From a virus: DNA of 64,000 nt. Every line of letters begins with the position of its first letter. The stretch's first letter is position 1. The DNA is taken from the IMG/VR virus record IMGVR_UViG_3300021405_000007, positions 32,001 to 96,000 of that record; one strand, 5' to 3'. Below the pieces are notes generated by a model that searched no databases, had not been told where the DNA came from, and saw only the letters and a list, made by a program, of their open reading frames with translations. The position numbers and the translations under genes were made by a program. Below, one piece after another: positions 2,589 through 60,599 of the stretch.

Positions 2589-2609
2589 TTCTTTTCCTTT
2601 TTAAAAACT

Positions 2610-2706: not shown

Positions 2707-3456
2707 ATGAAACTTTGTTATATTTGCAAAATAAATGAAAGTCTTAATTCTAGTAGGTGCAAAACTTGCAATACTGAGTATTTCAAAAAATACAGAGAAA
2801 AGAATGAAAAGAAAATAAAAACCTACAAGAAAGAATATTATTATTTGGAATTTAAAGAATCGATTAATGATAAAAATCATAGATACTATGAAAAAAATAA
2901 AGAATCAGTTAACAAAAGAAATAAAGAATATTATACCAATAACAAAGAAAAAGTTAGAAAAATCAATGATCTTTGGATGGAAGAGAATAAAGAAAAAGTG
3001 ACTATTTATCAGGCGGCCTACCGAAAAGAAAATTCAGATAAAACAGCTTCTTATAATAAAAAATATAAAATTAAAAACAAAAAAGATTTAACTTTAAAAA
3101 GAAGAAATTATGAGAATAATAGACTTGCAAATGATCCTTTTTATCGAGTTAAAAAAAATATAAGGCGCTCGATCAATAGAGCTATTAAAACTTCGAATTG
3201 GCGTAAAACAAAAATTACAGAAATTATTTTGGGGTGCACCTTTTCAGCATTAGTCACCCATTTAAAAGTTACTTGGGAGAAAAACTACCCAGGAGAGATT
3301 TTAAACTGGAGTAAAAATGTTCATATAGATCATATAATTCCATTAGTTACTGCTAAGACTTTAAATGATGTTTATTTGTTGAACCATCATTCGAACCTTC
3401 AATTATTGAAAGCTTTTGATAATATTAAGAAAGGTGGCAAAGTTTTAAACCCCTAA
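2707..3456 (+). CDS. HNH-type (endonuclease VII-like) free-standing endonuclease
   Basis: N-terminal CxxC..CxxC, Lys/Tyr-rich helical repeats, C-terminal HIDHIIPL...NHHSNLQLL...DNIKK. Confidence 0.8.
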   Translation: MKLCYICKINESLNSSRCKTCNTEYFKKYREKNEKKIKTYKKEYYYLEFKESINDKNHRYYEKNKESVNKRNKEYYTNNKEKVRKINDLWMEENKEKVTIYQAAYRKENSDKTASYNKKYKIKNKKDLTLKRRNYENNRLANDPFYRVKKNIRRSINRAIKTSNWRKTKITEIILGCTFSALVTHLKVTWEKNYPGEILNWSKNVHIDHIIPLVTAKTLNDVYLLNHHSNLQLLKAFDNIKKGGKVLNP

Positions 3457-3481
3457 AGTTTCTTACACTCCCTACCGATAT
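3454..3481 (+). promoter_or_regulatory. sigma-28 (FliA/SigD)-type promoter
   Basis: TAAAGTTT-N12-ACCGATAT, about 30 nt upstream of ORF 3512. Confidence 0.75.
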
Positions 3482-3758: not shown

Positions 3759-4031
3759 ATGTACAAAATAACAGAAAAAGTATACAAGTCTGAAACAATT
3801 AAAAAATTCTTAAAAGAAACAAAGGATGATAAAACCATGCAAAACATAGACTTGGAAGTAGGAAGCTTGGAAACATTAGAAGTAGAAGAACTAAGGGATT
3901 TAGCAATCAGTCTCTTTCACAAGACTTTTGGGACTGGGAGATTAGACTGGGATGCTAGAACGTATCTTCATGAAATTAAAGAGTATTATTCTAGACAAGA
4001 TTTGATTGATTTTATTTACGCAGAAGGCTAA
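3759..4031 (+). CDS. Hypothetical protein
   Basis: 90-aa ORF tightly packed with neighbours. Confidence 0.55.
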   Translation: MYKITEKVYKSETIKKFLKETKDDKTMQNIDLEVGSLETLEVEELRDLAISLFHKTFGTGRLDWDARTYLHEIKEYYSRQDLIDFIYAEG

Positions 4032-4055
4032 AGTTTAATTAGAATATGCCGATAA
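4029..4055 (+). promoter_or_regulatory. sigma-28 (FliA)-type promoter, perfect consensus
   Basis: TAAAGTTT-N11-GCCGATAA, then AAGGAG RBS and ATG 4093. Confidence 0.88.
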
Positions 4056-8182: not shown

Positions 8183-8287
8183 ATAAAATACTCCTTTTCA
8201 TAAATGCGTGCTATATGGTATAACTAAGTGATAACTCACTAGGAAACTACCTATAGAACATTAAAATTTGTGGAAAAGGAGAACCTC

Positions 8288-9529
8288 ATGCTGAGGGGGT
8301 TTTTACAAAAAATACAGCGCTTTCTTCTGGTTTTTGGCCCCGGCTTGATTGTGCTTGAATGCGATAACGATTTCGGCGCAGTTTCCACATATACCCAGCT
8401 TGGTGCTCAATATGGTACCAACTTTCTTTGGATTCTACTTCTTTTACTACCTATATGCTACCTTTGCCAAGAAATGGTTGTTAGGTTAGGAATAGCCACC
8501 GGTAAAGGTCACGCCGTTCTTATATATGAAAAATTTGGAAAATGGTGGGGAAGGTATTCTTTCGGAACTCTTCAAATAGTCAACTTCTTGACAGTATTGA
8601 CCGAATTTATAGGAATAAAACTAGCCTCGGAAACTCTAGGTTTTGACCCTAAACTAGCAGTAGGTCTTTTTGCTATATGTTTAATAGCTTTAGTATTGAG
8701 CGGGAGTTATTTTGTATGGGAAAAGCTCACTATTCTTTTATGTCTCGCAGATGGGGTTTGGTTTTACTTAAGCAGCGAAATAGGCCCTCCAACCCATGAG
8801 AGCATAACAAACTCTTTCATCCCAAGTATGCCAATTGGAGGGATAACCCTCCCCCTCATATTTCTTTTAATAGCTACTGTAGGGACAACTATAGCTCCAT
8901 GGCAATTATTTTTCCAACAAAGTTGTGTAATAGATAAGAACTTGAAAGCTTCTGATCTGAATCATGAAAGGCTTGATACATTTTTGGCTAGTATTTTCAC
9001 TATATTAGTAGCCGGAGCTATGGTTTGCGTAGGGGTCGTCCTTTTTAGCAAAGGAATAACCTACGTCGATCCAGCACAAATGGCCGAGGTTTTGAAACCT
9101 CTAGCAGGGGATTTTATAAAGAAGCTTATTTTAATCATGATTATAAATGCCTCTGTTCTCGGAGCGATGGCGGTAACCCTTTCTAGTTCTTGGGCTTATT
9201 CTGAAGTAGTAAATTCGGCATCGGGATTAGGTAAAAAAATAACTGAAGCACCCCAGTTTTACGGGATGTATATCTTTGGGGTTTTGCTCGCAGCAGGAAT
9301 AGTGCTAATCCCACAATTACCATTACAGCTGGTGACCATAAGCGTGCAAGTCTTAGCGGGATTACTATTGCCCCCAGCTTTAATATTTTTGCATTTACTA
9401 TTGAATGATGAAAAATTTGTTCCCAAAGAGTTTTTAAATAAACGGTGGAACAATATCGCTAATATAATCGTGATTGGTTTGATGATTGTTTTATCTTTAG
9501 CTTTAATAGCAATACCCTTTTTCTCTTAA
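8288..9529 (+). CDS. NRAMP-family divalent metal transporter (NRMT/Mg2+-type subfamily)
   Basis: About 11 TM helices; GPGLIVLECDNDFGAVSTY, QEMVVRLG, GTTIAPWQLFFQQS; AAGGAG RBS before ATG 8288. Confidence 0.88.
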   Translation: MLRGFLQKIQRFLLVFGPGLIVLECDNDFGAVSTYTQLGAQYGTNFLWILLLLLPICYLCQEMVVRLGIATGKGHAVLIYEKFGKWWGRYSFGTLQIVNFLTVLTEFIGIKLASETLGFDPKLAVGLFAICLIALVLSGSYFVWEKLTILLCLADGVWFYLSSEIGPPTHESITNSFIPSMPIGGITLPLIFLLIATVGTTIAPWQLFFQQSCVIDKNLKASDLNHERLDTFLASIFTILVAGAMVCVGVVLFSKGITYVDPAQMAEVLKPLAGDFIKKLILIMIINASVLGAMAVTLSSSWAYSEVVNSASGLGKKITEAPQFYGMYIFGVLLAAGIVLIPQLPLQLVTISVQVLAGLLLPPALIFLHLLLNDEKFVPKEFLNKRWNNIANIIVIGLMIVLSLALIAIPFFS

Positions 9530-10189: not shown

Positions 10190-10251
10190 CTAGTATAATA
10201 ACCTCAAAGGTATTTTAAGACTGTTAAAATGATCAAAATTGGAGACCAAAA

Positions 10252-10857
10252 ATGCGTATAGCAGTAGTAGACTTAGAAAATAACACTCCCCAAAATGAAT
10301 GGCAAAAATCATTAACTGAACGAGTAGAATGGGCGCCCATAATTGAGATAGGCGCTGTAATGCTTGATATTAGATCAGGTAAAATAATTTCTTCTTTTGA
10401 AACCTTTGTAAATCCCAATGAAGCAATTTTTCCAGAAATCACTGCTTTAACAGGAATAAGTGATGTAGAAACAACGGGACCAAATTCGGGGTCTCTCGAT
10501 GTAGCTTTAGATAACTTTTATCAGTGGATGGCAGATAATAACTGTAAATTAATGGCTGCTTGGGGTAGAGATTGTGATGAAATTGAGAAGCAAGCTATTA
10601 AATCAGGAATAATCAATAAGTTTAAGAAATTAGACATTAAAAGTATGTTTGATGTTTTAAAAGGTGGTTTATCCGGAAAAAAAATGAAGGGCGGTTTAAA
10701 AGGGACTTTGGAAACCTTTGGTTTAACCTTTGAAGGGAAACAGCATAGAGCCAAAGTAGATGCTTTAAATACAGCAAAACTATTATTTCACGCTAAAGAA
10801 ATTTCACTTTACGCCGATAAGATTAAGGAACATAAGTTTAGAGGATTGCAGGAGTGA
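10252..10857 (+). CDS. DEDDh 3'-5' exonuclease (ERI-1/KapD-like)
   Basis: VVDLE, IIEIGAV, ITALTGI, AWG..D, HRAKVDA. Confidence 0.88.
   Translation: MRIAVVDLENNTPQNEWQKSLTERVEWAPIIEIGAVMLDIRSGKIISSFETFVNPNEAIFPEITALTGISDVETTGPNSGSLDVALDNFYQWMADNNCKLMAAWGRDCDEIEKQAIKSGIINKFKKLDIKSMFDVLKGGLSGKKMKGGLKGTLETFGLTFEGKQHRAKVDALNTAKLLFHAKEISLYADKIKEHKFRGLQE
10794..10820 (+). promoter_or_regulatory. sigma-28-type promoter inside the 3' end of the exonuclease gene
   Basis: TAAAGAAA-N11-GCCGATAA (TAAA-N15-GCCGATAA), upstream of ORF 10876 and def. Confidence 0.72.
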
Positions 10858-10875: not shown

Positions 10876-11073
10876 ATGAAAGTATACTGGAAGTGTTCAT
10901 GTGGCAAAGAAGGAAGTGAAATAGAAAAATCTTCTATCATAGGTATTACTGAATTTGGAGTTTGGTTCAACTGTGAATGTAAGTCTACTCATCTAATCCG
11001 ACCAGAAGCTATTGAAAAATCAGACTTTGATTGCCCTTTGATAAATAAAGTTAATAATGCAAATGACTTATAA
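10876..11073 (+). CDS. Small Cys-rich (zinc-binding?) protein
   Basis: CSCG...CECKSTH; GGAG RBS. Confidence 0.55.
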   Translation: MKVYWKCSCGKEGSEIEKSSIIGITEFGVWFNCECKSTHLIRPEAIEKSDFDCPLINKVNNANDL

Positions 11074-11536
11074 ACTTCAAAAACTTGGCGCACCCATCCT
11101 TCGAAAAAAAGTAGATAGAGTTTTAAAGTTCAAACCTAAAGAACTCGAACAACTTTTCGAAGAGATGGTTTATATTATGATCTTAAATCAAGGTATTGGG
11201 TTAGCCGCTAACCAAATAGGCCTTAATAAACAGATCTTTATAGCAGCTTTAGAAACTTCACAAGGTATAATAACTCCTCGAATGTTCATAAATCCAACAA
11301 TGTTCACACTCAGCGAACAAAAATATGAGGCTTTCGAAGAAGGTTGTTTATCAGTAAATAAAGATAAAAGAATTTCAGACTTCCGTTCTAACTCCTTATC
11401 TCTGCACTATCAAGATACTCACGGTTTAGTCAAAACAGAATCTTTTTCAGGATTCAATGCAGTTATTATCCAACATGAATGCGATCACCTAGAAGGTAAG
11501 CTCTTCATAGATTACACTAATCCACATAAATGTTAG
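11057..11536 (+). CDS. def: Peptide deformylase
   Basis: All three motifs present: GIGLAANQIG, EGCLS, QHECDHLEG. Confidence 0.95.
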   Translation: MQMTYKLQKLGAPILRKKVDRVLKFKPKELEQLFEEMVYIMILNQGIGLAANQIGLNKQIFIAALETSQGIITPRMFINPTMFTLSEQKYEAFEEGCLSVNKDKRISDFRSNSLSLHYQDTHGLVKTESFSGFNAVIIQHECDHLEGKLFIDYTNPHKC

Positions 11537-12151: not shown

Positions 12152-12160
12152 TGTTATAAT
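12152..12160 (+). promoter_or_regulatory. Extended -10 (putative late) promoter
   Basis: TGTTATAAT 29 nt upstream of virion gene 12189. Confidence 0.6.
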
Positions 12161-12621: not shown

Positions 12622-12649
12622 TAAAGATTTACAAAATAAACTCCGATAA
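12622..12649 (+). promoter_or_regulatory. sigma-28-type promoter
   Basis: TAAAGATT-N12-TCCGATAA. Confidence 0.65.
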
Positions 12650-13151: not shown

Positions 13152-13160
13152 TGTTAAAAT
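13152..13160 (+). promoter_or_regulatory. Extended -10 (putative late) promoter
   Basis: TGTTAAAAT in intergenic DNA. Confidence 0.55.
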
Positions 13161-15231: not shown

Positions 15232-17943
15232 ATGTCAAAACCTTTTGATATTAATGAAGAAATTGATCAACTATCTGAAAAAATGGTTAAAGCTCAAAAA
15301 ATCACCTTTTTTGAGTTAGCTTCTGAATTAGGCCTGGAAGGTCTAAAAAAAGCAAGCTCTAAAATGTCAGAAGCACAACTCACTGCTTTTAAAGAAGAAT
15401 TACAAAAACATATACCAAAAAGTGTAACTAAATCTGATTCTACTCCTGATGGTATGAGTGAAGAAATGGCTGGAGTTTCAATGGCTCCTAGAGATGAAAA
15501 TGAAACTGAACAAAAAAAAGAAGAACGAGAAAAAGCCGCTAAAAGAGTCGAAGATGCCGAAGGTTTGAATAAAGATGAAAATGCTTTAGGAGAAATGCTA
15601 ATGGCCTCTGAAAAAGCTCCAATGAAAAAGTCTGAAGGTGCTAGAGGGGGACATGTGATAGGTCATACCAAGAGTGGTAAGCCTATATATGCTTCTGGTG
15701 ATGGCCAATCTTATTGGAAAACATTTAACTCAGATGAGCATTTGACAGCTGCTGCAATCCATGCTAAAGAAGCAGATAAATATAAAAAAAATGTTAATGA
15801 AATACGTGCAAAGTATAAAGAAAATGAAGCACCAATGAGTGATCAGGATCAACGTTTGCATAGTTATAATTGGAATAAATGGGATCACCATCACCATGAA
15901 GCTCAACAACATCAAGAAATAGGTCGGGTTTTAAGGGACAGAGAGGAGCGTAAGAAAAAAACTCTAGAAAAATCTAAAGGTGCTAGAGGAGGCCACGTAA
16001 TAGGGTACACCCAATCAGGCAAACCAATCTATGAAGCAGCTAATCACTCCAGCCATAAAGATTTTTCCAAAAAAGATCATGCTGATGCACTTCAAGCCCA
16101 CAAAGAATTAACTCCTACAGCCGGTAATCTTAAAGCTTTGATGGAAGCGAAATACCATGCTGAGCAACAAAAAACTCATTTAAATGCTATGGAAAACAAT
16201 AAAATGAAAAAAAGTGTAGTAGAAAAATCAATTATAAACAATACCATGAGTCTTGAGCCTTTTATCGAAACTGATAGAGGCGGTAAATTTGAAATGAATA
16301 TGGACGATATGAACCGTCAAGCATTGCTTGATGAACTTATTGCTATGGATGCAATGGCTTCAGAAGAGATGAGAGACGTACTGCACCAAGGCGGCCCCGA
16401 AATGTCAGAATCTTGGACTGGACAAACAATAGACGATCCACAACCCCATATGGACTATGAGTTGGGTGCGGAAGATCTTAAAACTCCAAAATCTGAAAAC
16501 AAAAATGATCAAATTGCTGATAAGATTATAGAATTAAACAAATTAGGCGAAATGTCTCACGAGGAAAGAATGGAAATGCGCGAAAAAATAATGATGATTC
16601 TTGAGGCTTTAATGGAGCGTCAACTAGAAAAAGCTGTTATTTCTAAAGCTCTTGACACTTTATCTGTGAAATTGAATCTACCAAATGGTAAATTGCATAC
16701 TCTTTACGACAAAGTAGTTGAATTGAAAAAGTCTGAAGGCGCCAGAGGTGGGAAAATTATAGGCCATACTAAATCGGGTAAACCTATTTACGAACATGCC
16801 GAACATAAAGGGCATGAAGGCTTTCATTATGAAGATCATTTCGATGCTATGAAAGTTCATCATAAATTGGCGCATTCCCATGAAGATAAAGCTAAAGGCA
16901 TGATTGCCGCTGATGGAATGAAAGACTTTAAAGAGCTGAAAGGTCACGCTGAAGGCATAAAACACCACCTCAATGAGGCTTCCAAACATGAAAAAATGTT
17001 CCGTAAAATGACGCCAGGCATTAAAAAAGCCCTAGATCCTTTTTATGATAACATCGAAACTAACGAAGATTTCTATAAATCTGATGCTTTAAATCCTTTC
17101 GAATATAGAAAGATTGGACAAAACTACCATGCAGATGTCGACGCTTATATTGAAGCAGAAGAAAAAGCAACAAAAGAAAATCTAGATAAATCAACTTTCT
17201 TTTACCCAGACCAAAAAGCTTTGACCAAGTCATCAGGCATCCAAGAGTTGATCGAAAAGGGCGCTCACATGGACGAGCTGGAGCTTGAAACTGCTTTAAT
17301 TAATAAAGGTATTTCTGCTACCTATCGTGGAGTTAACATAGTAAAATCATTCACAGACTCTTCTATGGAAGACCTTTTTGTACAACGAGATACTTGGGGT
17401 CAACCAATTAAAAAGTCATACGATGATATTCATCGCGAAGGTAGCGGTTCTGCAGAAGACCATGATGACGTAATGCATCAAGATGCCGGCGAAGCAATGG
17501 AAGAATCCGGAGAGCCGATCCGTAAAGATGAGTCAGAAGAGTCTGATGAAGAAAAGAAAAAAAGAGAAGAAGCTAAAGAAAAACTCATGGAGATGGAAGA
17601 ACGCGAACATGCAACCAAAGATCCAGAAGAGTTGATTGAAGCTGAAAAAGAAGAGCATATGGAAAAAGCTGAAGATGACCACAAAGAAAGCGACAATTGT
17701 GAAGATGTTGACTTGGAAAAATGTGGTGGCTATGATATGCTTTCTAAAGAGTTAGATGATATGAAAGAAGATGCTAAAGATGAAGAGATTGAAAAAGCCT
17801 ATATCGGCTTTAAAAAACTTGAAAGCAAAATAGCTCATCGTGGTGGAGTTAAAAACCCAGCTGCAGTCGCCGCTTCGATAGGTAGAAAAAAGTATGGAAA
17901 ACAAGGATTTGCAAAATTAAGTGCTGCAGGACGTCGTAAGTAG
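15232..17943 (+). CDS. Large putative internal head (poly)protein with three GARGG-G[HY]T[KQ]SGKPIY repeats
   Basis: 903 aa; three repeats; about 20 hydrophobic-x-K-[S/A/G] motifs; acidic tracts; basic C-terminal peptide. Confidence 0.6.
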   Translation: MSKPFDINEEIDQLSEKMVKAQKITFFELASELGLEGLKKASSKMSEAQLTAFKEELQKHIPKSVTKSDSTPDGMSEEMAGVSMAPRDENETEQKKEEREKAAKRVEDAEGLNKDENALGEMLMASEKAPMKKSEGARGGHVIGHTKSGKPIYASGDGQSYWKTFNSDEHLTAAAIHAKEADKYKKNVNEIRAKYKENEAPMSDQDQRLHSYNWNKWDHHHHEAQQHQEIGRVLRDREERKKKTLEKSKGARGGHVIGYTQSGKPIYEAANHSSHKDFSKKDHADALQAHKELTPTAGNLKALMEAKYHAEQQKTHLNAMENNKMKKSVVEKSIINNTMSLEPFIETDRGGKFEMNMDDMNRQALLDELIAMDAMASEEMRDVLHQGGPEMSESWTGQTIDDPQPHMDYELGAEDLKTPKSENKNDQIADKIIELNKLGEMSHEERMEMREKIMMILEALMERQLEKAVISKALDTLSVKLNLPNGKLHTLYDKVVELKKSEGARGGKIIGHTKSGKPIYEHAEHKGHEGFHYEDHFDAMKVHHKLAHSHEDKAKGMIAADGMKDFKELKGHAEGIKHHLNEASKHEKMFRKMTPGIKKALDPFYDNIETNEDFYKSDALNPFEYRKIGQNYHADVDAYIEAEEKATKENLDKSTFFYPDQKALTKSSGIQELIEKGAHMDELELETALINKGISATYRGVNIVKSFTDSSMEDLFVQRDTWGQPIKKSYDDIHREGSGSAEDHDDVMHQDAGEAMEESGEPIRKDESEESDEEKKKREEAKEKLMEMEEREHATKDPEELIEAEKEEHMEKAEDDHKESDNCEDVDLEKCGGYDMLSKELDDMKEDAKDEEIEKAYIGFKKLESKIAHRGGVKNPAAVAASIGRKKYGKQGFAKLSAAGRRK

Positions 17944-18378: not shown

Positions 18379-19185
18379 ATGACGTCCATTAAAAAGGGTT
18401 GGAATGTAGAAGTAGCTAAACCTACAAAACGTCAATCCACTCTCCCTAAAGTAAATTTAAAAAAAGAACAATTTGACCAACTTATACTTGACCAAGGTGT
18501 AAATGTAAGAGTCTTTAGAACAGTTCCATGCCCTAATGTTAAGTCTATTGAAGCTGGGGAGCATGAGATTGATTGTCCACTTTGCCGTGGTTCTCAATTC
18601 GTGGATCGATACCCATTAGAAACTAGAGTTGTGATTCAATCCGTACAAACAGAAGTAGCTCACTTAGTTGAAGGTCTTTACGACGGTAATACGGTCACTA
18701 TTACCCTCCCAAGCGGTGTAGAATGCCAATATTACACCATGATTGAATTAGTTAACTATACCGAAATTTATATTGAACGTGTGTCCCGGCAATTAGGACA
18801 AGTAGATGTTCTAAAATTCCCAGCTACTAGGGTCAATTTGTTAATTGATCAACACGGCAAGGAATACCTTGAAGGTGCAGACTTTAGCGTAGATCTTAAC
18901 AGCAATATAAAATGGGGAACTAATAGAGGCCCGGTAGAAGGCACTATTTACTCAATTCATTATGAAACCAAAGTACGGTACCGTACTGTACGGGCACTGC
19001 ACACCAATCGTTATGGCAATATAACCGAAAACGGTGTGGATGATATGACTAAGATGGCGGAATCATGGTTAGGCTTCAAAATTTTCTTAGTTGACAGAAA
19101 AGATCAACTGGGCAATCTAGTTAGGAGTAATAAACTCCCACTTCATGAGATTTCTGATGATTCCGATTATTACACTACAACTTAA
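18379..19185 (+). CDS. Neck/head-closure protein
   Basis: F..LI..QG..V...CP......CPLCRG; WG...P..G..YSI.Y; position among neck genes. Confidence 0.65.
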   Translation: MTSIKKGWNVEVAKPTKRQSTLPKVNLKKEQFDQLILDQGVNVRVFRTVPCPNVKSIEAGEHEIDCPLCRGSQFVDRYPLETRVVIQSVQTEVAHLVEGLYDGNTVTITLPSGVECQYYTMIELVNYTEIYIERVSRQLGQVDVLKFPATRVNLLIDQHGKEYLEGADFSVDLNSNIKWGTNRGPVEGTIYSIHYETKVRYRTVRALHTNRYGNITENGVDDMTKMAESWLGFKIFLVDRKDQLGNLVRSNKLPLHEISDDSDYYTTT

Positions 19186-19355
19186 ATAGTGGATTCTAAG
19201 TCTTCTACTTCTAATATTTCAAAAGATCCGACTGCATAACCCTCGATTACTAGGTGCCTAGCCTCTTTATCTACTTCTCTTCTTGTTGAGAAGATTCCTG
19301 AGTGGATCGCATCTTCCATGGATTCATCCTTGAATTTAATTACGTATTTTTTCAT
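19182..19355 (-). CDS. Small hypothetical protein (57 aa)
   Basis: AAGGAG RBS; MKKYVIKFKDESMEDAIHSGIFSTRREV...; not in the ORF track. Confidence 0.6.
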   Translation of the reverse strand: MKKYVIKFKDESMEDAIHSGIFSTRREVDKEARHLVIEGYAVGSFEILEVEDLESTI

Positions 19356-19377: not shown

Positions 19378-19587
19378 TTAGAAGTCAAAGCCGTCATTAT
19401 CTAGCTCTTCGTCATCTTCCTAATAATTTTCAGTTTCTAGAAAGTCTTCATCATCAAAGTCTTCTTCTAATAGATCATCTGATTCTTTATCTTCGTGAAA
19501 TCCACCATCTTCGTATTCTTTTTCTAAGTTTCCAAAGGCTAACTCATTCATTTCTTTACTTAATTTTATCATTTCTTCTATTCTCAT
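19378..19587 (-). CDS. Small very acidic protein with in-frame TAG at 19420-19422
   Basis: AAGGAG RBS; MRIEEMIKLSKEMNELAFGNLEKEYEDGGFHEDKESDDLLEEDFDDEDFLETENY*EDDEELDNDGFDF*. Confidence 0.55.
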
Positions 19588-19624: not shown

Positions 19625-19651
19625 TCTTCGGTAGATTTTTAAAAAACTTTA
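19625..19651 (-). promoter_or_regulatory. sigma-28-type promoter
   Basis: Reverse strand TAAAGTTT-N11-ACCGAAGA upstream of 19587. Confidence 0.65.
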
Positions 19652-19659: not shown

Positions 19660-19751
19660 TTGCATCTTTTGACAATAATCAGTAAACTATAATTAACTCA
19701 TTGAGGGTAGTATAGCTAACTCTTCAAGATTCTTACCAAATTTGGTAAAAT
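19660..19751 (+). promoter_or_regulatory. sigma-70-type promoter elements for the sigma gene
   Basis: TTGCAT-N17-TAAACT (19660-19688) and extended -10 TGGTAAAAT (19743-19751). Confidence 0.4.
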
Positions 19752-19785: not shown

Positions 19786-20976
19786 ATGCAAGATGACTTA
19801 GATATCGTCAACGAGAATGATATTCTTGTTATAGAGACGATAGTTTACAATGACAACTCTTCTTACGCTGAAGACAATTCTTCACCTTCCCTTAAAACCT
19901 ATATAAGACAACTATCTAAATTTCCACTTCTTACCCGAGAACAAGAACTTTCGCTCACGAGAAACCTCAAAAAGAACCGTGAGATCCTTTATTCAGCCTT
20001 TATGAAAACCCCAGAATGTCGTCTAGAACTTATGCAAATGCTCAACGCTAAGGTAGGTAGAGCTCGTAGAATGTTTGATCATATAGCAGAAGCTACCGAT
20101 GACGATGAGAAGGTTCTGAATCTTCAAGAAGAGCTAGCCAATGCCATAAAAGATAATAACTTCTCCAAGAAAAATCACAAGAATTTTCAGAACTTAGTTA
20201 TCCCTTTTAATGATTTTTATAGACTAGTTAATATTCTAAAAGCAAAAGAACTCACTCCTGAAGTCTCTAAAGCCCTCAATGAATACAACCAAATGAAGAA
20301 AAGGTTGTCAGAGTGTAATCTTCGTTTAGTCTTCGCTAGGGCTAAGAGATTTATGAATAGAGGCATGTCTTTAGAGGATCTTATCCAAGAGGGTAACGTG
20401 GGATTACTTAAGGCAATTGAGAAGTATAATCCAGAAAAAGGAAACAAATTCAGCACTTATGCTACTTGGTGGATTGATCAAGCTTTTGGCCGCGCTTTAG
20501 TGGACAAAAGTAAACTTGTACGTATCCCTGTACATATGGTTGATTCCATCAATAAAGTCAATAAAGCTTTTCAGACTCTTTCTGAGACTCTGACACATGA
20601 ACCTAGCAATGAAGAAATAGCAAAACTTACGGGACTAACTCTAGAGAAAGTTCGAAAAGTCAGAAACTCCATTATTCTAAAAGCTAAGTACCTTCAAGAA
20701 TTTCAAAATGATAAAGCTCTTCCTAAAATTATGGATTTTCCCGACGAGTCTAAAAATCCCGAAGAGCAACTCGAAGAGAAAGAATTAAGTGTTAAAGTAC
20801 GGGAATTTTTAGCAACTCTTTCGCCGCAAGAAGAAAAGATTTTAAGACTCAGGTTCGGAATTGGTGAAGCGAGAAGCTATGAAGTACAAGAAATAGCGAA
20901 CACTGTAAAATTAACACGTCAAAGAGTTTCTCAAATTCTCAATAAGACTAAGAAATTATGGGAATTTAAGGTATAA
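19786..20976 (+). CDS. Phage-encoded RpoD/SigA-like RNA polymerase sigma factor
   Basis: Region 1.2 YIRQLSKFPLLTREQE; region 2 NLRLV...DLIQEGNVGL.KA.EK...KFSTYATWWI; RIPVHM; region 4 LSPQEEKILRLRFGIGE...TRQRVSQI. Confidence 0.93.
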   Translation: MQDDLDIVNENDILVIETIVYNDNSSYAEDNSSPSLKTYIRQLSKFPLLTREQELSLTRNLKKNREILYSAFMKTPECRLELMQMLNAKVGRARRMFDHIAEATDDDEKVLNLQEELANAIKDNNFSKKNHKNFQNLVIPFNDFYRLVNILKAKELTPEVSKALNEYNQMKKRLSECNLRLVFARAKRFMNRGMSLEDLIQEGNVGLLKAIEKYNPEKGNKFSTYATWWIDQAFGRALVDKSKLVRIPVHMVDSINKVNKAFQTLSETLTHEPSNEEIAKLTGLTLEKVRKVRNSIILKAKYLQEFQNDKALPKIMDFPDESKNPEEQLEEKELSVKVREFLATLSPQEEKILRLRFGIGEARSYEVQEIANTVKLTRQRVSQILNKTKKLWEFKV

Positions 20977-20982
20977 TTTAGA

Positions 20983-21747
20983 ATGGCCTCGAATGAAATT
21001 ACATTCAAAATTAGTGATGAAATCAAGAAGTTAGGTCAAGACTTAGAAGCCTTAGCACCTAGAATTCGTGATGAGCTAAATGGCATTGTTGGAGATTTAG
21101 CAAAAGCTACCTACAATCAAATAGTGGCAAAAGCTCAAATGGAGCTTCATAGCACCAGATTAGACTACCTTAGAGGTTTACAATTTCAACAAGTTGGCCC
21201 TAATGACTATATGATAAGTTTGGATGGTTTTTTTGCTAATTCATTAGAAGATGGTCGGCCACCTTATTCTTTGAATGAGGCGCTGCTCAAGTCAGCCAAA
21301 GAGGTAAGCACGGGTAGTAGAGCGGGTGAACCTTGGGTTCGAAAGAACAAACAAGGGAAGCGTTATGCGGCTGTACCATTTGAACAGTCTCAAATGAGAG
21401 TAGAAATGGGTTTGCCTACTTTGAGAGTTACAAACCCTTTTACCGATAAAAAACAAAAGATAAATCAACTATTTAAAGATTTTGATAAAAATATAATTCA
21501 AGGAAAAGTAGGTAGTTTTAACATCCCTAGTGCACCTAACGAACTGCAAGGATTGACTAAATACCAACACACAAATAAAGAAACCGGCAAAACTAGAAGT
21601 ACTTACGTGACTTTTAGAATGATCAGTGAAAATGGTAAACAATGGACTCACCCCGGTTTTTCTGGACTTCATGCTTTCGAAGAAGCCATGAAAATGGTAG
21701 ACGTCCAATTTGAAAAAATGCTAAATGAATTATTTGATAAAATATAA
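20983..21747 (+). CDS. Neck/virion morphogenesis protein
   Basis: L.STR..Y..GL, AN.LE.G, Y.TFR..SE....W.HPG; position between neck and sheath. Confidence 0.6.
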   Translation: MASNEITFKISDEIKKLGQDLEALAPRIRDELNGIVGDLAKATYNQIVAKAQMELHSTRLDYLRGLQFQQVGPNDYMISLDGFFANSLEDGRPPYSLNEALLKSAKEVSTGSRAGEPWVRKNKQGKRYAAVPFEQSQMRVEMGLPTLRVTNPFTDKKQKINQLFKDFDKNIIQGKVGSFNIPSAPNELQGLTKYQHTNKETGKTRSTYVTFRMISENGKQWTHPGFSGLHAFEEAMKMVDVQFEKMLNELFDKI

Positions 21748-21756: not shown

Positions 21757-22710
21757 ATGGCAATGATAATTCCAGAAATTATTTTACAAAGTATTATCGA
21801 TGATGGTTTTACTGATATCAGAAATAACCCTGATACTTTTAGTGATGTTTTCGGTAGTTTAACTCGCGGTTTTGCAACAAGAAGATATGGTAATTCTGAA
21901 ATTGCAAAAATTACCAAAATGGTACAAAATACTCAAATTCCAGTAGTTTTTAGCTACGGAATAGTTGAAGCGAATATCCCCTGTATAAGTATCCTTATTA
22001 ATTCAGATTTAGAAGATACTAATCGGTCTGGTATGTCTGACCATCTTGGATTCGCTGATATACCTTTTATAGACCCTTCTCAGTTAGCTGCTTTAGTCTA
22101 TGCTGGCCCTTTTCAACCCACTTCCTATAATCCTTTATCCGGTCAAATTGTCATCCCAGACTCAGTAGATTTATCTCAGGTTTATGCCAACCTTTTGTTC
22201 GTAGATAGCACCGGTACCGAATTCCCAATCTTAGGAGGTATTTCTGACACTGTTGGGAGTAAGCAGATCGTAATAGCCAAACAAGCTACTGTTAGCCTTA
22301 ATCCCGGAGCGGTCATAAAATCTTCAATAGACTTTAGTCGAGTTGAAGTTAAAGCCAACACTGAGAATGTTTCTCTAATGGTGGGAGTGCACAGCAAAGA
22401 CCCTTTAACCACTAAGTGGTTGTATACACTAGTAAAATACTTTCTTCTTTCTAGAAAAGAATCTTTAATTAAACGTGATTTCAATTTAGCTACTTATTCA
22501 GGTTCAGATTTTGCTAGGGACATGAATTACTCTGGAGATGCCGTTTTTACAAGATTTTTAACTGTTTCCGGCGTCATTCAGAATCAATGGAATTCTGAAA
22601 ACATCGATCTATTTGATAATGTTGAGATTAATCTACAAATTCCAAAAGATGTTTATGATAGCCAACAATTAGGAATAGAAGCCGACGAAACTATAAAAAC
22701 AATTCTATAA
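21757..22710 (+). CDS. Putative tail completion/terminator protein
   Basis: Upstream of sheath; PCISI, VG.HS, F.R.L.V motifs. Confidence 0.5.
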   Translation: MAMIIPEIILQSIIDDGFTDIRNNPDTFSDVFGSLTRGFATRRYGNSEIAKITKMVQNTQIPVVFSYGIVEANIPCISILINSDLEDTNRSGMSDHLGFADIPFIDPSQLAALVYAGPFQPTSYNPLSGQIVIPDSVDLSQVYANLLFVDSTGTEFPILGGISDTVGSKQIVIAKQATVSLNPGAVIKSSIDFSRVEVKANTENVSLMVGVHSKDPLTTKWLYTLVKYFLLSRKESLIKRDFNLATYSGSDFARDMNYSGDAVFTRFLTVSGVIQNQWNSENIDLFDNVEINLQIPKDVYDSQQLGIEADETIKTIL

Positions 22711-22720
22711 GACACGGGCA

Positions 22721-22729
22721 TGATATAAT
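22721..22729 (+). promoter_or_regulatory. Extended -10 (putative late) promoter for the sheath operon
   Basis: TGATATAAT in intergenic DNA. Confidence 0.6.
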
Positions 22730-22779
22730 TATTATGTTCTTGTCCCATATTATGTTAATAAATCCAAGAGATTGAATTA

Positions 22780-23025
22780 ATGGGAAAGAAATTGAAAAAA
22801 ATAAATCTAGATTCAAATGTTCTGGAATCTGAAGCGGTTGAGATTGTTCCTCAAATGATCAAAGTCTCTCCAATGATGACTTTTGAAGCTTGGTTCCAGA
22901 AAAAGGTTAAAGAAGGCAAACTTCAGGAATGGCAAACAAAAGCTGTGAGCATTTTCTTTAAGAAGCGAGGCTTAAAGGAAATAGAGTCTGAAGATCAATT
23001 CGATGAAATTTTCAAAATTTTTTAG
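22780..23025 (+). CDS. Hypothetical protein upstream of sheath
   Basis: 81-aa ORF in the sheath operon. Confidence 0.55.
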   Translation: MGKKLKKINLDSNVLESEAVEIVPQMIKVSPMMTFEAWFQKKVKEGKLQEWQTKAVSIFFKKRGLKEIESEDQFDEIFKIF

Positions 23026-23042
23026 ATTAAGGTATCAACAAA

Positions 23043-25190
23043 ATGGCTATTAAAACAAATTTCGGTGGAAGCACTATTTATCATCCAGGTGCTTATTCAA
23101 AATCGATCACCAACCCAACTCCCGGCTCTAATGTTGTATCAACCGATACCCTATTTCTTATTGGTGAGGCCTCTGGTGGCCAACCAGGTTCAAGCGCTGG
23201 TATAGTGTTTTACCCAGCTTCAGCTGCTTCCCAAATTCAATCTATTTATCAATCCGGCCCTATTGTAGACGCAATCATGAATTGTTTAGCTCCCCTGAAA
23301 CTATCAGGCGGTGGTGGTCCGGGTTTAATTGGTATATATAAAACCAACGCATCTGTGCAAGCATCTCTATCATTAGCTAGTTCTTACGCTACCTTAAAAG
23401 CTTTAGATTACGGCGTAAATGGAAACAGGATCACTGCTAAAATTATTGTTTCTGCAGAAGTATCTCCAGCAGTAACTGGTTCAGCAGCAGTAACTAACTT
23501 TGGTGGTTTAAACACTGAAACTTTAGTAATTAGAACAAATGGTGCAGCTTCAGTCACAGTTACATTCTCTTCTCCTGCAAGTATTGCTGATGTGATTTCT
23601 CAAATCAATTCTCAAGACACCCAAGTAACAGCGAGTCAAGTTGGTGGAATTCTTACGATTACCAAAAATACATCGGCTAATCATAATAGGGATGGTTTTG
23701 GTTCTACTATTGAAATTGTTAGCGGTTCTGCCTTAGGCCTTTTGTTTCTAACAGCTGGTCAATTTGGAGTAGCCGCTTCAGAACAAACCGCAACCGTAAC
23801 CTTAGCAAGTTCTGCTATTAATGTAACTGAAACTGATGTAGAAGGCGGAGCAATCGCTCTATCTATCGGTAGAACTAATGCTAGTTCTTGTACAGCTGCA
23901 ACAGTTCAAGTCAGTTCAACTAGTTTGGTGCTTACCGCAACGGGTTCAACTTCTTATAACTTTACCTTAAGCCAATACCCTTTAATTAAAGATTTAGTAG
24001 CAGCTATTAATAACGTAGCTGGAGGTTGGTCTGTAACTGCTAATGCAACCTTACAAAGTCTACCGTCATCAGCACTTGATGAAATGACCATTGGAGCATT
24101 TTCTGAAGCTGGTAACCAACCTGCTAGGATTAAAATTGATGCTTATTCAATGTCTCACGCTTTTGATTCATCCCAATTAGTTTCTATTGCCATGACTGCA
24201 GTAGCTGGTTTACCAGACCAACTTTCTCCTGCTGCTAGTTTAGCTGGTGGATTGTTGGGTGCAAGCGCTTCTTCTGACTTCGAAAATGCTTTAACTTTAT
24301 CTTTATCCGAAGACGTAAATGTTATCGTTCCTTTAATTAGCCAAGATGCTTCGGCTGACATCAGTATGGGTGTAACTGACTCTAGTTCTACTTACGATGT
24401 AGAAGCTGTTCAAGCAGCCCTTTCTTCTAACTTGGCATTACGCGGCAATATTAAAAATCGTCGCGAAGCTCAAGGGGTTGTAGGATACAGAGTTAATACT
24501 GCAGCTGCTATGTATGCCCAAGCAGCTTTGTTAGCCGATTCCAATACTCAATTAGTTGGACAGGATGTTTTAGTAGTAGATTCAACTGGTAATCTAAATT
24601 ATAAACAACCACACATCTTAGCTGCAATGATTGCAGGTGCTCGTTTAGGTGTTGATATCGGTGAACCTTTAACTTACAAATTCATTGCAGTTTCAGCAGT
24701 GGGTCATTTTGTTAATCCATCTACTGGTGTTTCTGGTGGTGATTTCAACCCAGTAATCGATGGTGATGCAGCTATCCAAGCCGGGGTTACTTATTTGGAA
24801 CCAGCTCAAGGAGCTTTCCGAATAGCAGTAGACAATACTACTTACGGTGCAGATGCTAATTTTGTTTACAATCGTGGTTCAGTGGTACAAGCTGCTCAAT
24901 ACATTGCTAAAACGATCCGTAATGATGCTGAACTTACTTTCGTAGGTAAGAAAACTTCAATCGTTGATGCTAATGCCATTAAATCAAGAATTTCAACAAT
25001 ATTACGTCAATTATTAGTAGCTCAAATTATAGTCCCTTCAACTGGTTATCCTTTGGGTTATAATACTGACACTTTTACCGTACAAGTTGTTGGAAACACA
25101 GCTAGCGTTCAACTCGAAGTATTCCCAGTACTTGGCCTCGACTTTGTGCTGATTACTTTTACGTTATCGGAAGCTACTTCTAACGCTTAA
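23043..25190 (+). CDS. Contractile tail sheath protein
   Basis: N-terminal F.G..I.HPGAYS, IG.A.GG.P; GEPLTYK; C-terminal DNTTY...F.G...PV..LDFV.I. Confidence 0.9.
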   Translation: MAIKTNFGGSTIYHPGAYSKSITNPTPGSNVVSTDTLFLIGEASGGQPGSSAGIVFYPASAASQIQSIYQSGPIVDAIMNCLAPLKLSGGGGPGLIGIYKTNASVQASLSLASSYATLKALDYGVNGNRITAKIIVSAEVSPAVTGSAAVTNFGGLNTETLVIRTNGAASVTVTFSSPASIADVISQINSQDTQVTASQVGGILTITKNTSANHNRDGFGSTIEIVSGSALGLLFLTAGQFGVAASEQTATVTLASSAINVTETDVEGGAIALSIGRTNASSCTAATVQVSSTSLVLTATGSTSYNFTLSQYPLIKDLVAAINNVAGGWSVTANATLQSLPSSALDEMTIGAFSEAGNQPARIKIDAYSMSHAFDSSQLVSIAMTAVAGLPDQLSPAASLAGGLLGASASSDFENALTLSLSEDVNVIVPLISQDASADISMGVTDSSSTYDVEAVQAALSSNLALRGNIKNRREAQGVVGYRVNTAAAMYAQAALLADSNTQLVGQDVLVVDSTGNLNYKQPHILAAMIAGARLGVDIGEPLTYKFIAVSAVGHFVNPSTGVSGGDFNPVIDGDAAIQAGVTYLEPAQGAFRIAVDNTTYGADANFVYNRGSVVQAAQYIAKTIRNDAELTFVGKKTSIVDANAIKSRISTILRQLLVAQIIVPSTGYPLGYNTDTFTVQVVGNTASVQLEVFPVLGLDFVLITFTLSEATSNA

Positions 25191-34479: not shown

Positions 34480-35469
34480 TCATTTTAATCCTATCTCCTT
34501 TAAACGTTCTTCTAAGAACTCTCTTGCAGTATATCTCTCCGAAAGAATAAAGTCACTAGGAGGATGAAAGAAAAAGGGTATTGAATAGCGACTATGTTCT
34601 TCACCCCACCTAGTATTAATAACTCTATGAGTAGTGCTTTTAAGTGCGCCTCCAGTCAATTCCTGCAGCATATCTCCAATATTCACAATTATCAACCTGC
34701 TTGAAGTAGGCGCACTTATCCAAGAACCATCCGAAGCCTTTATTTGCAGTCCAGTTGATCGAGAAGCTGGAAGTAAGGTGAGTAGATTGATATCCTCATG
34801 TTCAGCTGCTCGCATACCTATAGGATTAGCCCCAGTTGGAGGATAGTGTAGCACTCTTAATAAAGAGTTATTTTTTGTAGTGTCTTTAGCAATTTTTGAA
34901 AGTTGGGGTAACTTCAAGTCTTTGGCTATAACATTGATCAATATACCACCTAACTCGTCTAAAGCATTATAAGCTAGAGCGAAATTGGATAAATGGAAGG
35001 GGGATACTAAGGAATGCGGAATATGCAAAAACTCCTTTAAATCAGGAATAGTTTGATCTTTAGCTTTTTCAGTTTTAAAGGGGGTATAGCCTATTTGACC
35101 ATTTGTTTCTGGATAATGAAAAATCATTTTAAATTGAAGAGCTTGAGCAAAAAAATGTTCAGCAGCATCTTTAGCTGCATGCAAGTGATATGTTTTAAAA
35201 TTGGCAAGCCAATCAATAGGGTTAATAGCAGCAAAACCAATAGTTTTAAAGGCTTGCAATAATTCTTGAGGGCTAGTTACCACAGGAATGGTTTTTGTGG
35301 TAAGGTTGTTACAATGCTCAATATAAGCTTCAGTCTGTCTTTCTTCGATTAATTTTAAAACTTTCAATAAAGTTGAAACTTCCACAATATTTGTTGGACT
35401 CGTAGATTGTGAATAAGTAGCCATTTGTTTTTGTAATTCGGCCAAAATTCTATTTTTTAGAATTTCCAT
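34480..35469 (-). CDS. IPNS-like 2-oxoglutarate/Fe(II) oxygenase with a foreign N-terminal extension
   Basis: LLRVLHYPP, HED (HxD), GLQI, VNIGDML, STTHRV, RYS; GGAGG RBS before ATG 35469. Confidence 0.9.
   Translation of the reverse strand: MEILKNRILAELQKQMATYSQSTSPTNIVEVSTLLKVLKLIEERQTEAYIEHCNNLTTKTIPVVTSPQELLQAFKTIGFAAINPIDWLANFKTYHLHAAKDAAEHFFAQALQFKMIFHYPETNGQIGYTPFKTEKAKDQTIPDLKEFLHIPHSLVSPFHLSNFALAYNALDELGGILINVIAKDLKLPQLSKIAKDTTKNNSLLRVLHYPPTGANPIGMRAAEHEDINLLTLLPASRSTGLQIKASDGSWISAPTSSRLIIVNIGDMLQELTGGALKSTTHRVINTRWGEEHSRYSIPFFFHPPSDFILSERYTAREFLEERLKEIGLK
35262..35287 (+). repeat. 26-bp exact direct repeat, copy 2
   Basis: Identical to 33709-33734; encodes PVVTSPQE on the minus strand. 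Confidence 0.92.
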
Positions 35470-35489
35470 AATTTTTACCTCCAAATAAC

Positions 35490-37341: not shown

Positions 37342-37668
37342 TTAGCTCCAAATTATCGGAGGAGAACGACCCTCCCAACTATCAATTAACTCACAATACT
37401 TTAGCATTTGAATATTAAAGTCATAAGAAATACCTTCCACAACAGATAAATGAGCATCATCGAGTGACATTTCAAGTATCTTGATGTTTCGTTGACAATC
37501 ATAAAGTAATATGAATCCATCAACAGTGTAAAAAGTTTTAAGATATATATTTGATCTAGCGCCTATAAAGACATTTATATCAAAAATGGTATTAGAAAAA
37601 TATGCCAAAGATTTAGCTCCCACAAACACCCCCTTTTCCAATTTCACAGATATCAGCACTTTCTTCAA
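37342..37668 (-). CDS. Hypothetical protein (start uncertain)
   Basis: Fills the space downstream of the RNR gene. Confidence 0.35.
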   Translation of the reverse strand: MKKVLISVKLEKGVFVGAKSLAYFSNTIFDINVFIGARSNIYLKTFYTVDGFILLYDCQRNIKILEMSLDDAHLSVVEGISYDFNIQMLKYCELIDSWEGRSPPIIWS

Positions 37669-39250
37669 AAACTTTGCCTTCTTGAGATAAAGCTTCTTCT
37701 AAAGAAACTCTAGTCAAAGGCTGACCACCTCTAGCACCATCCGGATAACAAGTGAATCCCCTTAACCTTTTTGCATATTTTAGCAATATTTTAGAGTATT
37801 TATCCAAAGTTTCATCATTATTGAATTCAGAGCCCCATTGAGGGAGATTGCAGGTAGAACTGATACTCATATCAACATATTGTTGAACATCTGCTTGAAA
37901 CTTAACTCTAGCTTTAAAGTCGATATCAAAAGAATCTTGAATTTGATCTAAAGAAATTCCAGCGGCCAATAAACGTTTAACCGCCCCATCCACTACATAT
38001 TCATGTACCCATTCTCTGTTTTTATCTAAGTATCTACGTTTATAGGCTTTACAGAATAAAGGTTCAATGCCGGTTGTAGTTTCAGCCAAAATGCCAATGC
38101 TTCCTGTAGGAGCTATTGCTCTCTTACCTTTAGGAATTTGAACACCTAAAGCCTTCGCCCAAATATAGGCGGCGCTATCAGACTCTTGTTCATACACATT
38201 TAGCCATTTGTGAAGTTCCGGCGTGGCTTCGTAATCGAACTTACGAAGCATAAGCCACTCATGTAACCCTCCCAATCCAAGACCAATTCTATTATTCTTT
38301 AAACCTACTTCTTTAATTTTATTTGTAGGAACATCAGAATATATGCCTCCACATAAGAGAAATATGGTTGCAACATGGCAAACCCGAGCAAACTCTTCTC
38401 GAGTACTACAACGATTGATCCAAACAGTACCTAAGTTACATTTATCTGAATCGTCAGAAGATACCACCTCTGTGCAGGCATTTCTCAATGATTCATTATC
38501 CTTACAGAAATTGAAACTCATTCCGGGTTCGGCTGTTTTAAATGCCTGTTTGCAGTTTTCCAACCAAATTTTTCTAGCTTGTTTATTTTTGGGATGGTTC
38601 TTATTTTCCATGGCTACAAAGAATTCGGTGTTATATATTACTGAAATATTAGTACCTTCCATAGGAAGGGGAAAATTGAAATCTTTTTGCTTTAATTCCC
38701 TCAAAGGTTCCGACCAATCCTTTAACTTAAGAAAGTTAGGAACATCAGCATGATCCCATTGAAGGCCGGCCCAAATAGCACTTCTTCTAGCACCCCCCTG
38801 CATAATGTATCTACCAGCTTCAGAAATCATATTCATGAGGGCTATTGGACCAGTACTTTGACCTCCAGTTCTTCGAATAAGAGCACCCTCAGGACGTAAA
38901 CCAGAGTAATCAAAACCTATACCCCCGCCAGTCATAAGACAAGCGGTAGCTTTTTGCATAGCATCAGCCCAACCCTCCCTAGAATCCTCGGCACGAAGTA
39001 AGAAACAGTTATTGACTTGGTGATAGTCTCTACCAGCTGAATATAGGTATCTACCACCCGGAATAAATTTTCTATCTAACATATATTGGAGTACTTCATT
39101 TTTTAAATCAGAAGGTAGAAGCTGTCCAGTAACCGCCCCAACTACTCTTTCACATGTATCCGCCCAAGTTTCTTGACCATTCATTGAATACTTTTGCTTA
39201 AAGATGTTGTTCGCAAAAGAGGTCGAGAATACATCGAATTTGTCTGTCAC
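37613..39250 (-). CDS. nrdJ: Ribonucleotide reductase, probably class II (adenosylcobalamin-dependent)
   Basis: PGGRYL, NNCF, GGGIG.DYS.LRP, QGG.RR.A, NACTE, CNLG, APTGS, GIEP; C-terminal Cys pair; no small subunit nearby. Confidence 0.85.
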   Translation of the reverse strand: MTDKFDVFSTSFANNIFKQKYSMNGQETWADTCERVVGAVTGQLLPSDLKNEVLQYMLDRKFIPGGRYLYSAGRDYHQVNNCFLLRAEDSREGWADAMQKATACLMTGGGIGFDYSGLRPEGALIRRTGGQSTGPIALMNMISEAGRYIMQGGARRSAIWAGLQWDHADVPNFLKLKDWSEPLRELKQKDFNFPLPMEGTNISVIYNTEFFVAMENKNHPKNKQARKIWLENCKQAFKTAEPGMSFNFCKDNESLRNACTEVVSSDDSDKCNLGTVWINRCSTREEFARVCHVATIFLLCGGIYSDVPTNKIKEVGLKNNRIGLGLGGLHEWLMLRKFDYEATPELHKWLNVYEQESDSAAYIWAKALGVQIPKGKRAIAPTGSIGILAETTTGIEPLFCKAYKRRYLDKNREWVHEYVVDGAVKRLLAAGISLDQIQDSFDIDFKARVKFQADVQQYVDMSISSTCNLPQWGSEFNNDETLDKYSKILLKYAKRLRGFTCYPDGARGGQPLTRVSLEEALSQEGKVFEESADICEIGKGGVCGS

Positions 39251-39304: not shown

Positions 39305-39313
39305 ATTTTATCA
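39305..39313 (-). promoter_or_regulatory. Extended -10 upstream of the RNR gene
   Basis: Reverse strand TGATAAAAT. Confidence 0.5.
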
Positions 39314-48551: not shown

Positions 48552-48560
48552 TGTTAAAAT
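48552..48560 (+). promoter_or_regulatory. Extended -10 (putative late) promoter
   Basis: TGTTAAAAT before 48600. Confidence 0.6.
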
Positions 48561-55873: not shown

Positions 55874-55882
55874 TGTTAAAAT
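55874..55882 (+). promoter_or_regulatory. Extended -10 (putative late) promoter
   Basis: TGTTAAAAT right after the wedge gene stop. Confidence 0.6.
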
Positions 55883-60590: not shown

Positions 60591-60599
60591 TGATAAAAT
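60591..60599 (+). promoter_or_regulatory. Extended -10 (putative late) promoter
   Basis: TGATAAAAT before 60623. Confidence 0.5.

Follow-up and report, generated by a model that had tools for sequence, protein, structure and literature searches.

An RpoD-like sigma factor of a virus-only clade and candidate -35-less extended -10 promoters in an uncultured myovirus

The uncultured tailed myovirus of IMG/VR record IMGVR_UViG_3300021405_000007 has one detectable sigma factor gene in its 108 kb genome, open reading frame (ORF) 19786-20976 on the plus strand of the stretch analysed here (the window, 64,000 nucleotides, bases 32001-96000 of the 108,106-bp record, for which CheckV estimates a completeness of 93%). 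Judged from its sequence, this ORF encodes a genuine sigma-70 family factor with a group-2-like architecture, and it belongs to a newly described clade, recovered only from viruses and metagenomes, whose signature appears to be an Asp or Glu at position 436 and a Gly at position 440. The phage also appears to have a real class of extended -10 promoters that lack a -35 box and are conserved across the clade. The protein family, its residues, the clade, the synteny of the gene and the placement and conservation of the promoter motifs are direct observations. That the phage sigma directs the host polymerase to these promoters is a proposal with about an even chance of being right.

The protein has 396 residues from its ATG, with an in-frame TTG at 19774 as an alternative start. 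Pfam recognizes sigma-70 region 1.2 at residues 35-61, region 2 at 176-242, region 3 at 255-294 and region 4 at 342-387, with scores of 24.6, 73.8, 44.4 and 40.9 bits against cut-offs of 22, 24, 25.3 and 24.1, respectively. Region 1.1 (PF03979) has no Pfam match, and just 34 residues lie ahead of region 1.2, in agreement with the initial annotation of an RpoD-like sigma with regions 1.2-4 and no region 1.1. The score with TIGR02937 is 106.9 against a cut-off of 42.9, which places the protein in the sigma-70 family, and in PHROGs it matches phrog_351 (RNA polymerase sigma factor) over residues 160-390 (E 4.9e-63, 215 bits). NCBIfam models of RpoD, RpoS, cyanobacterial group-2 sigmas and MzaA match with E-values of about 1e-60 to 1e-71, all with scores far under their curated cut-offs.

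An AlphaFold2 model, based on an alignment of 27 family sequences, has a mean predicted local distance difference test score (pLDDT) of 80.7, and Foldseek retrieves only primary sigma factors with it, the best PDB matches being RpoD/SigA chains. The model shows residues 1-31, nine of which are acidic and none basic, as disordered. Between regions 1.2 and 2.1 lies an insert that had been noticed earlier at an overestimated length of about 120 residues; it spans about 85-100 residues, is seen in all 10 aligned family members and forms a confident helical bundle at about residues 76-154. Region 3.2 (residues 298-321) is divergent and is disordered or of low confidence in the model, so that the earlier description of the sigma finger as degenerate holds.

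Residues are numbered as in E. coli K-12 RpoD, from an alignment with E. coli RpoD, RpoS and solved RpoD/SigA chains. The KFSTYATWW stretch is kept in the phage sigma, as are F427, T429, Y430, W433, W434, Q437, R441, R451 and H455. The replaced residues are R436D, I439F, T440G, E458D, E585Q and R588S, and the C-terminal tail past K593 is short and degenerate. The -35-reading helix (region 4.2) is altered in this phage. The alignment contains every change that the initial annotation had named (R436D, T440G, E458D, E585Q, R588S and the degenerate tail), and it likewise bears out the retention of KFSTYATWW, Q437 and H455. The further suggestion that the protein is tuned for extended -10 promoters finds little footing, since H455 is merely retained, as in all 79 of the bacterial sigmas used for comparison, and E458D is a conservative change seen in just eight of 32 family members.

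The family was collected by two large protein searches as proteins of about 350-510 residues that align over their full length at 33-57% identity, and every member stems from a metagenome or a viral contig. The clade comprises at least 32 sequence clusters; residue counts are taken over 32 members, and the bacterial set consists of 79 sigmas from named genomes of 15 phyla. Position 436 is Asp in 20, Glu in 10 and Lys in two of the 32 members, compared with Arg in 77 of the 79 bacterial sigmas. Position 440 is Gly in 25 members and Ser in four, compared with Thr in all 79 bacterial sigmas. Both replacements, R436D/E and T440G, alter the helix that adjoins promoter position -12. Because substitution of R436 by Ser or Ala in E. 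coli weakens closed-complex (duplex) promoter binding (PMC3592454), an acidic residue fixed at this position would represent a real functional departure. The phage sigma shares with its clade the acidic residue at 436, the small residue at 440 and a gene position between phrog_1004 and phrog_16819 genes.

Conservation within the family is uneven along the protein. Core-binding and DNA-melting residues are strongly conserved over the 32 diverged members, and column entropy in regions 2.3-2.4 is 0.86 bits, compared with 0.28 bits in bacteria. In the region 3.2 finger the corresponding values are 2.53 and 1.01 bits, and in the recognition helix of region 4.2 they are 1.73 and 0.10 bits, the high value for the family fitting a relaxed reading of the -35 element. 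E585 and R588 are each found in 79 of 79 bacterial sigmas; apart from this phage, only its closest homologues, P0002 and P0003, combine E585Q with R588S (an identical protein also occurs on a 202 kb contig). A second subclade, with proteins of 463-508 residues, keeps TRERIRQIE alongside D436. A scan with the pattern WWIDQA found four IMG/VR contigs only, and a metagenome scan gave no members of the family among the matches listed, which were bacterial RpoD.

The phylogeny against bacterial RpoD that had been proposed as a check separates the virus sequences as a clade of their own. The family is monophyletic with a FastTree support of 98 and, in a smaller IQ-TREE tree with 17 members, a Shimodaira-Hasegawa-like approximate likelihood ratio test (SH-aLRT) value of 98; these trees have an unreliable root and long branches. 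Nitrospirota is the sister of the family in the best tree, with a support of 93. In approximately unbiased (AU) tests, a grouping with "delta" lineages (p 0.29) or with Cyanobacteria (p 0.19) is not rejected, and one with Bacillota is marginally rejected (p 0.041). The motif LRLRFGIGE, which had been taken as a sign of a delta-type RpoD, is therefore not demonstrable as such, and a delta origin is neither confirmed nor excluded.

Compared with the group 1 factors RpoD and SigA, the phage sigma has regions 1.2-4 at about 40-45% identity over regions 2-4, the residues that read the -10 and TG elements, and an insert where the non-conserved region sits. It is unlike them in having no region 1.1, in its degenerate regions 3.2 and 4.2, in its separate clade, and in the replacement of the near-invariant R436, T440 and TRERIRQIE by D436, G440, Q585 and S588. 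It passes none of the RpoD models (NF004208, 240.6 against 555; TIGR02393, 220.2 against 354; NF006666, 207.3 against 572). Group 2 factors, RpoS and the cyanobacterial SigB-E type, resemble it in having regions 1.2-4 without region 1.1, and a cyanobacterial RpoD/SigA-subfamily model aligns with it end to end, from residue 36 to 387. T440 is replaced in RpoS too, whereas RpoS retains R436. The scores with the group 2 models are below the cut-offs (RpoS TIGR02394, 206.3 against 378.7; TIGR02997, 221.4 against 384.5), the AU tests place the phage sigma with no bacterial group, and the FliA/sigma-28 model TIGR02479 gives 110.2 bits where 189.6 are required. The best NCBIfam E-value belongs to MzaA, the sigma of the MZA anti-phage system, in one alignment over residues 27-387 that includes the insert. 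An MzaA identity was rejected as generic similarity (NF041931, 241.8 bits against 800; MzaA has about 726 residues). The MZA system was also rejected, as the neighbours are virion genes with no defence genes among them and PADLOC matches the sigma alone.

Among phage factors, SPO1 gp28 and gp33/34 and T4 gp55 are highly diverged or truncated and read motifs that are not of the sigma-70 type. The phage sigma may be like them in being a phage gene product that redirects the host core polymerase; it differs from them in that it looks like an almost complete RpoD and that its candidate promoters follow the universal extended -10 consensus. When 50,697 deposited phage records were searched with tblastn, the nearest full-length match was one in Vibrio phage 2.275.O, at no more than 27.7% identity.

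The promoters in question carry the motif TGnTAWAAT. Over the genome as a whole, TG.TA.AAT is not over-represented (46 sites, with 33.8 ± 6.2 expected). In the sense orientation upstream of ORFs, TGnTAWAAT occurs 15 times in this phage against 1.39 ± 1.24 expected, 13 times against 1.43 in its relative G001 and seven times against 0.42 in G002, the expectations being taken from shuffles of the same non-coding upstream stretches. Motifs of the form TGnTAwAAT-T without a -35 box, 14-60 nt upstream of ORFs, are about ten times as frequent as by chance. When 35 of the extended -10 sites are aligned, the -35 region contains at most 0.2 bit. Outside the search pattern, two positions show a bias: -6 is T in 39 of 49 extended -10 sites overall, from phages of 31-45% GC, and the base 7 nt past the -10 box tends to be a purine. 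The sites of this phage have TGTTAAAAT as their consensus, and those of G001, G002 and the second sigma subclade have TGATATAAT-T. In sense-upstream sequence, the density of such sites is 2.0 per kb at loci with D436-type sigmas, compared with 0.76 per kb, our own sum over comparison rows, in viral loci of up to 46% GC with ordinary RT-type sigmas.

The extended -10 sites are found mostly before virion genes, and they also precede ribonucleotide reductase (RNR), Nramp, endonuclease VII-like and ClpP-like genes. The initial annotation had proposed TGnTAWAAT as the virion promoter; the -35-less class and its preference for virion genes stand, while the site before the RNR gene indicates that the class is not restricted to them. 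The loss of E585 and R588 had been offered as the cause of the -35 independence, but the promoters of second-subclade phages, whose sigmas have TRERIRQIE, are likewise without a -35 box. TGnTATAAT is the general consensus, and the optimum, of bacterial primary sigmas.

A further class of sites resembles promoters of sigma-28 (FliA), with the form CTAAAGTTT-N11-GCCGATAA. The pattern TAAAG-N13-16-CCGATA occurs nine, 14 and three times in this phage, G001 and G002, compared with 0.27, 0.25 and 0.14 expected, and several of the sites in G001 and G002 share a conserved AGTAATATGTAA immediately downstream. Most of them precede small accessory genes without assigned function; one operon includes peptide deformylase, and in this phage one site also precedes the first gene of the replication block. 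No site of this kind faces the sigma gene, the weaker one nearby pointing away from it towards two small ORFs, and the back-to-back arrangement of this site with the sigma promoter is absent in G001 and G002. There are none in the sequence examined around the sigma gene at the loci L008, L011, L022 and L033, in stretches of 12.6-20.7 kb, and a literature search found no phage use of sigma-28 promoters.

Canonical promoters are less prominent in this phage, where -35/-10 pairs number eight, fewer than the 15.5 ± 3.8 expected, and where scans for canonical sigma-70 promoters and terminators around the sigma gene give chance-level results. In G001 and G002, TTGACA-17-TAnnnT sites are found sense-upstream of genes, the sigma gene included: the stretch upstream of the sigma gene has TTGACA-17-TAAGGT in G001 and TTGACA-17-TAGTAT in G002, and the virion neighbours differ from it in this respect. 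The replication operon of G001 is headed by TTGACA-17-TATACT.

We favour, at even chances, a mechanism in which the phage sigma would bind the host core RNA polymerase and steer it to TG(A/T)TA(T/A)AAT-T promoters without a -35 element, the ones that would drive the majority of virion operons along with a small number of metabolic genes. At its fixed place between the neck genes, the sigma gene would form a transcription unit of its own. In the relatives, the host primary sigma should read the canonical -35/-10 promoter of the sigma gene, and this promoter suggests a cascade from host sigma or sigmas to the phage sigma and then to the late genes. The extended -10 promoter before the sigma gene of this phage would imply that a host sigma reads it at a basal level and that positive feedback then sets in. 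The assignment of promoters to sigmas, and the timing, are what we infer here. Throughout the clade, D436-type sigmas and TGATATAAT-T promoters occur together, which argues for this mechanism, as does the retention of H455 and of all residues that recognize and melt the -10 element. Further arguments are the absence of any other detectable sigma from the genome, the clade signature and the kept gene order, the enrichment of the motif upstream of ORFs with its additional T at -6, the relaxed -35 reader, the different promoter of the sigma gene in G001 and G002, and the precedent of phage K.

Several observations weigh on the other side. Since TGnTATAAT is the primary-sigma consensus, these promoters are expected to be read by the host sigma as well, and no feature was found in them that would make them proof against it. 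The sigma gene itself bears an extended -10 promoter in this phage, and the motif also serves the RNR, Nramp, endonuclease VII-like and ClpP-like genes. The state of region 4.2 did not covary with whether the promoters have a -35 box. By analogy with the E. coli substitutions, D436 could also mean a weaker or different contact with DNA (PMC3592454).

These observations bring in another possibility, doubtful but deserving serious attention, that the extended -10 promoters are read by the host primary sigma over the whole course of infection and that a phage sigma of the same specificity acts as no more than a booster or replacement, in one variant keeping phage transcription going if a phage product disables region 4 of the host sigma or if the host sigma is scarce. 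This comes close to the supply of a housekeeping-like sigma that the initial annotation had suggested. The universal consensus, the conserved -10 and TG determinants, the same promoter type at the sigma gene and the service to non-virion genes would all be expected if this were so, but it leaves unexplained the clade-wide D/E436 and G440 and the T at -6 that the promoters keep in phages with 31-45% GC, and no anti-sigma gene was recognized among the annotated genes. The related notion of a host state with low RpoD activity, put forward in the initial annotation, was pure speculation. It is much less probable that the phage sigma reads other promoters, either the sigma-28-like ones or an unrecognized class, and leaves the extended -10 sites to the host sigma. 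R436D/E and T440G do change the helix next to -12, and there is a single phage sigma for at least two non-canonical promoter classes. However, the residues that bind A-11 and T-7 are intact while the sigma-28-like -10 box has no T at the equivalent of -7, the match to the FliA model (110 bits, cut-off 189.6) is insufficient, and the second subclade has the sigma without sigma-28-like sites in the stretches examined.

The initial annotation had itself proposed a switch in which host sigma-28 (FliA) polymerase drives the early programme and makes the phage sigma, which then turns on the virion genes. The sigma-28-like sites are real and are placed upstream of accessory genes and, in this phage, of the gene that opens the replication block; one of them is back to back with the sigma promoter region. 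The switch is nevertheless improbable, because none of the sites faces the sigma gene and the nearby one points away, the sigma gene of G001 and G002 has a canonical promoter, the replication operon of G001 starts from TTGACA-17-TATACT, and no sites occur in the L008, L011, L022 and L033 stretches, those of the second subclade included. A decoy that titrates the host core polymerase or a host anti-sigma factor would be compatible with the degenerate region 3.2 and region 4.2 tail in this phage; it is very improbable in view of the core-binding and melting residues conserved in 32 members and of a model that folds confidently as a sigma. A wider reading extends the favoured mechanism and is accordingly put forward as tentative and rather unlikely: the virus-only RpoD-like branch, recognizable by T440G, by the reversed charge at R436 and by a -35 reader that drifts, would be a core gene of fixed position in a clade of myoviruses of about 100 kb and would provide the host core polymerase with -35-independent specificity for TG(A/T)TA(T/A)AAT-T. 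Three sigmas would then act in sequence here, the sigma of this sub-lineage lying downstream of promoters read by the flagellar and primary sigmas of the host.

The location of the sigma gene inside the neck cluster, noticed from the start, is evident from its neighbours, a phrog_1004 gene upstream and phrog_16819, phrog_1000 and tail sheath genes downstream (Table 1). This order is kept in eight phage loci (this phage, G001, G002, L008, L011, L022, L033 and L038), at 35-55% identity, with values of 27-55% for the neighbouring genes, so that the unusual location is a conserved trait of the clade. G001 is a complete genome of 108,914 bp with terminal repeats. L022 has the sigma gene at the usual place but in inverted orientation with respect to the genes around it. 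The phrog_16819 gene starts 7 nt past the sigma stop codon and is therefore probably co-transcribed with the sigma gene. The two small antisense ORFs between the phrog_1004 and sigma genes encode proteins of 57 and 55 residues that have no family match and are not conserved in the relatives. The C-terminal half of the 55-residue protein is very acidic, and a role of these ORFs in transcription takeover is only a guess. In two loci of the second subclade, L008 (6719-7339, minus strand) and L011 (6869-7489, minus strand), the phrog_1004 and sigma genes have between them, on the opposite strand, a homologue of the gene with which the replication block of this phage begins (positions 204-800 of G000, the whole record of this phage). 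Immediately upstream of the neck genes, a gene at 15232-17943 (plus strand) encodes a charged, repeat-rich protein of 903 residues; in our own ORF calls, which are crude throughout, the homologous region of G001 has two ORFs of 652 and 484 residues.

The capsid protein is distantly Herelleviridae-like, with about 30% identity to Bacillus phage capsid proteins. The replication block includes genes for GroEL, an exonuclease, a primase-helicase, DNA polymerase, a UvsX-like recombinase and SbcCD; the morphogenesis block includes terminase, portal, proteases and capsid, with a neck and tail block besides. There are two ClpP-like protease genes in addition to the prohead protease. Accessory genes encode an Nramp transporter, a BT1 transporter, a 2OG-Fe(II) oxygenase, peptide deformylase and RNR. 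The Nramp/MntH-type metal transporter gene (window 8270-9529, plus strand; PF01566, 7.7e-64) has a homologue in G001, and an extended -10 motif precedes the gene in both phages. The BT1 (folate-biopterin transporter) family gene, an unusual cargo for a phage, lies about 5 kb past the end of the window (G000 101176-102558, minus strand, or L166:5176-6555; PF03092, 2.3e-28), and G001 has a homologue of it as well. As for the host, the Nramp protein is about 55% identical to homologues of Acidobacteriota and Chitinophagaceae from soil and peat (soil metagenome-assembled genomes), phyla too mixed for a host to be named. A GroEL scan for host inference found no relatives, and the window has no tRNA genes. 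The M15 endolysin has no Pfam match to a wall-binding domain and has a possible N-terminal membrane segment (a weak, sub-threshold DUF6168 match), features that hint only weakly at a Gram-negative host.

Table 1. Positions of the sigma gene, its neighbours, candidate promoters and other genes (window coordinates, except where G000 is given)
Feature	Position	Strand	Remarks
Phage sigma-70 family gene	19786..20976	+	regions 1.2, helical non-conserved insert, 2, 3, 4
phrog_1004 virion structural gene	18379..19185	+	upstream neighbour of the sigma gene in 8/8 loci
Two small antisense ORFs	19182-19355, 19420-19587	-	between phrog_1004 and sigma genes
phrog_16819 gene	20983..21747	+	first gene downstream of the sigma gene
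phrog_1000 gene, small ORF, tail sheath gene	21757..25190	+	conserved downstream block
TGGTAAAAT, extended -10	19743..19751	+	35 nt before sigma ATG; no -35 box at 16-18 nt
TGATATAAT, extended -10	22721..22729	+	before small ORF and sheath operon
TGTTAAAAT, extended -10	10222..10230	+	22 nt before ORF 10252
TGTTATAAT, extended -10	12152..12160	+	before ORF 12189
TGTTAAAAT, extended -10	13152..13160	+	before ORF 13208 (head-tail connector block)
TGTTAAAAT, extended -10	48552..48560	+	before 845-aa tail/baseplate gene
TGTTAAAAT, extended -10	55874..55882	+	before 1552-aa fibre-like gene
TGATAAAAT, extended -10	60591..60599	+	before 655-aa gene
TGATAAAAT, extended -10	39305..39313	-	before RNR gene
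Sigma-28-like sites	3454-3480(+), 4029-4054(+), 10794-10819(+), 12622-12648(+), 41981-42007(-), 63328-63353(-)		
Weaker sigma-28-like site, TAAAGTTT-N11-ACCGAAGA	19625..19651	-	directed at the two small ORFs, not at the sigma gene
Weak candidate -35/-10 pair, TTGCAT-17-TAAACT	19660..19688	+	upstream of the sigma gene
2OG-Fe(II) oxygenase	34480-35484	-	
Peptide deformylase	11057-11536	+	
RNR large subunit	37613-39250	-	
GroEL-like chaperonin	G000 1149-2774		

Sigma factors encoded by phages are a classic route to timed gene expression, and here one that looks like an almost complete RpoD belongs to the conserved core genes of a whole clade of uncultured phages. The gene would be that of an ordinary accessory sigma if the extended -10 promoters are read by the host sigma. 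If the favoured mechanism is true, the clade would be a natural experiment on how a sigma-70 factor works without -35 contacts. The late promoters of T4 are without a -35 box. Those of phage K also have none and require an unknown factor (PMC11598898), and the sigma described here, if it acts as proposed, would suggest the kind of factor behind such -35-less late promoters of large myoviruses.

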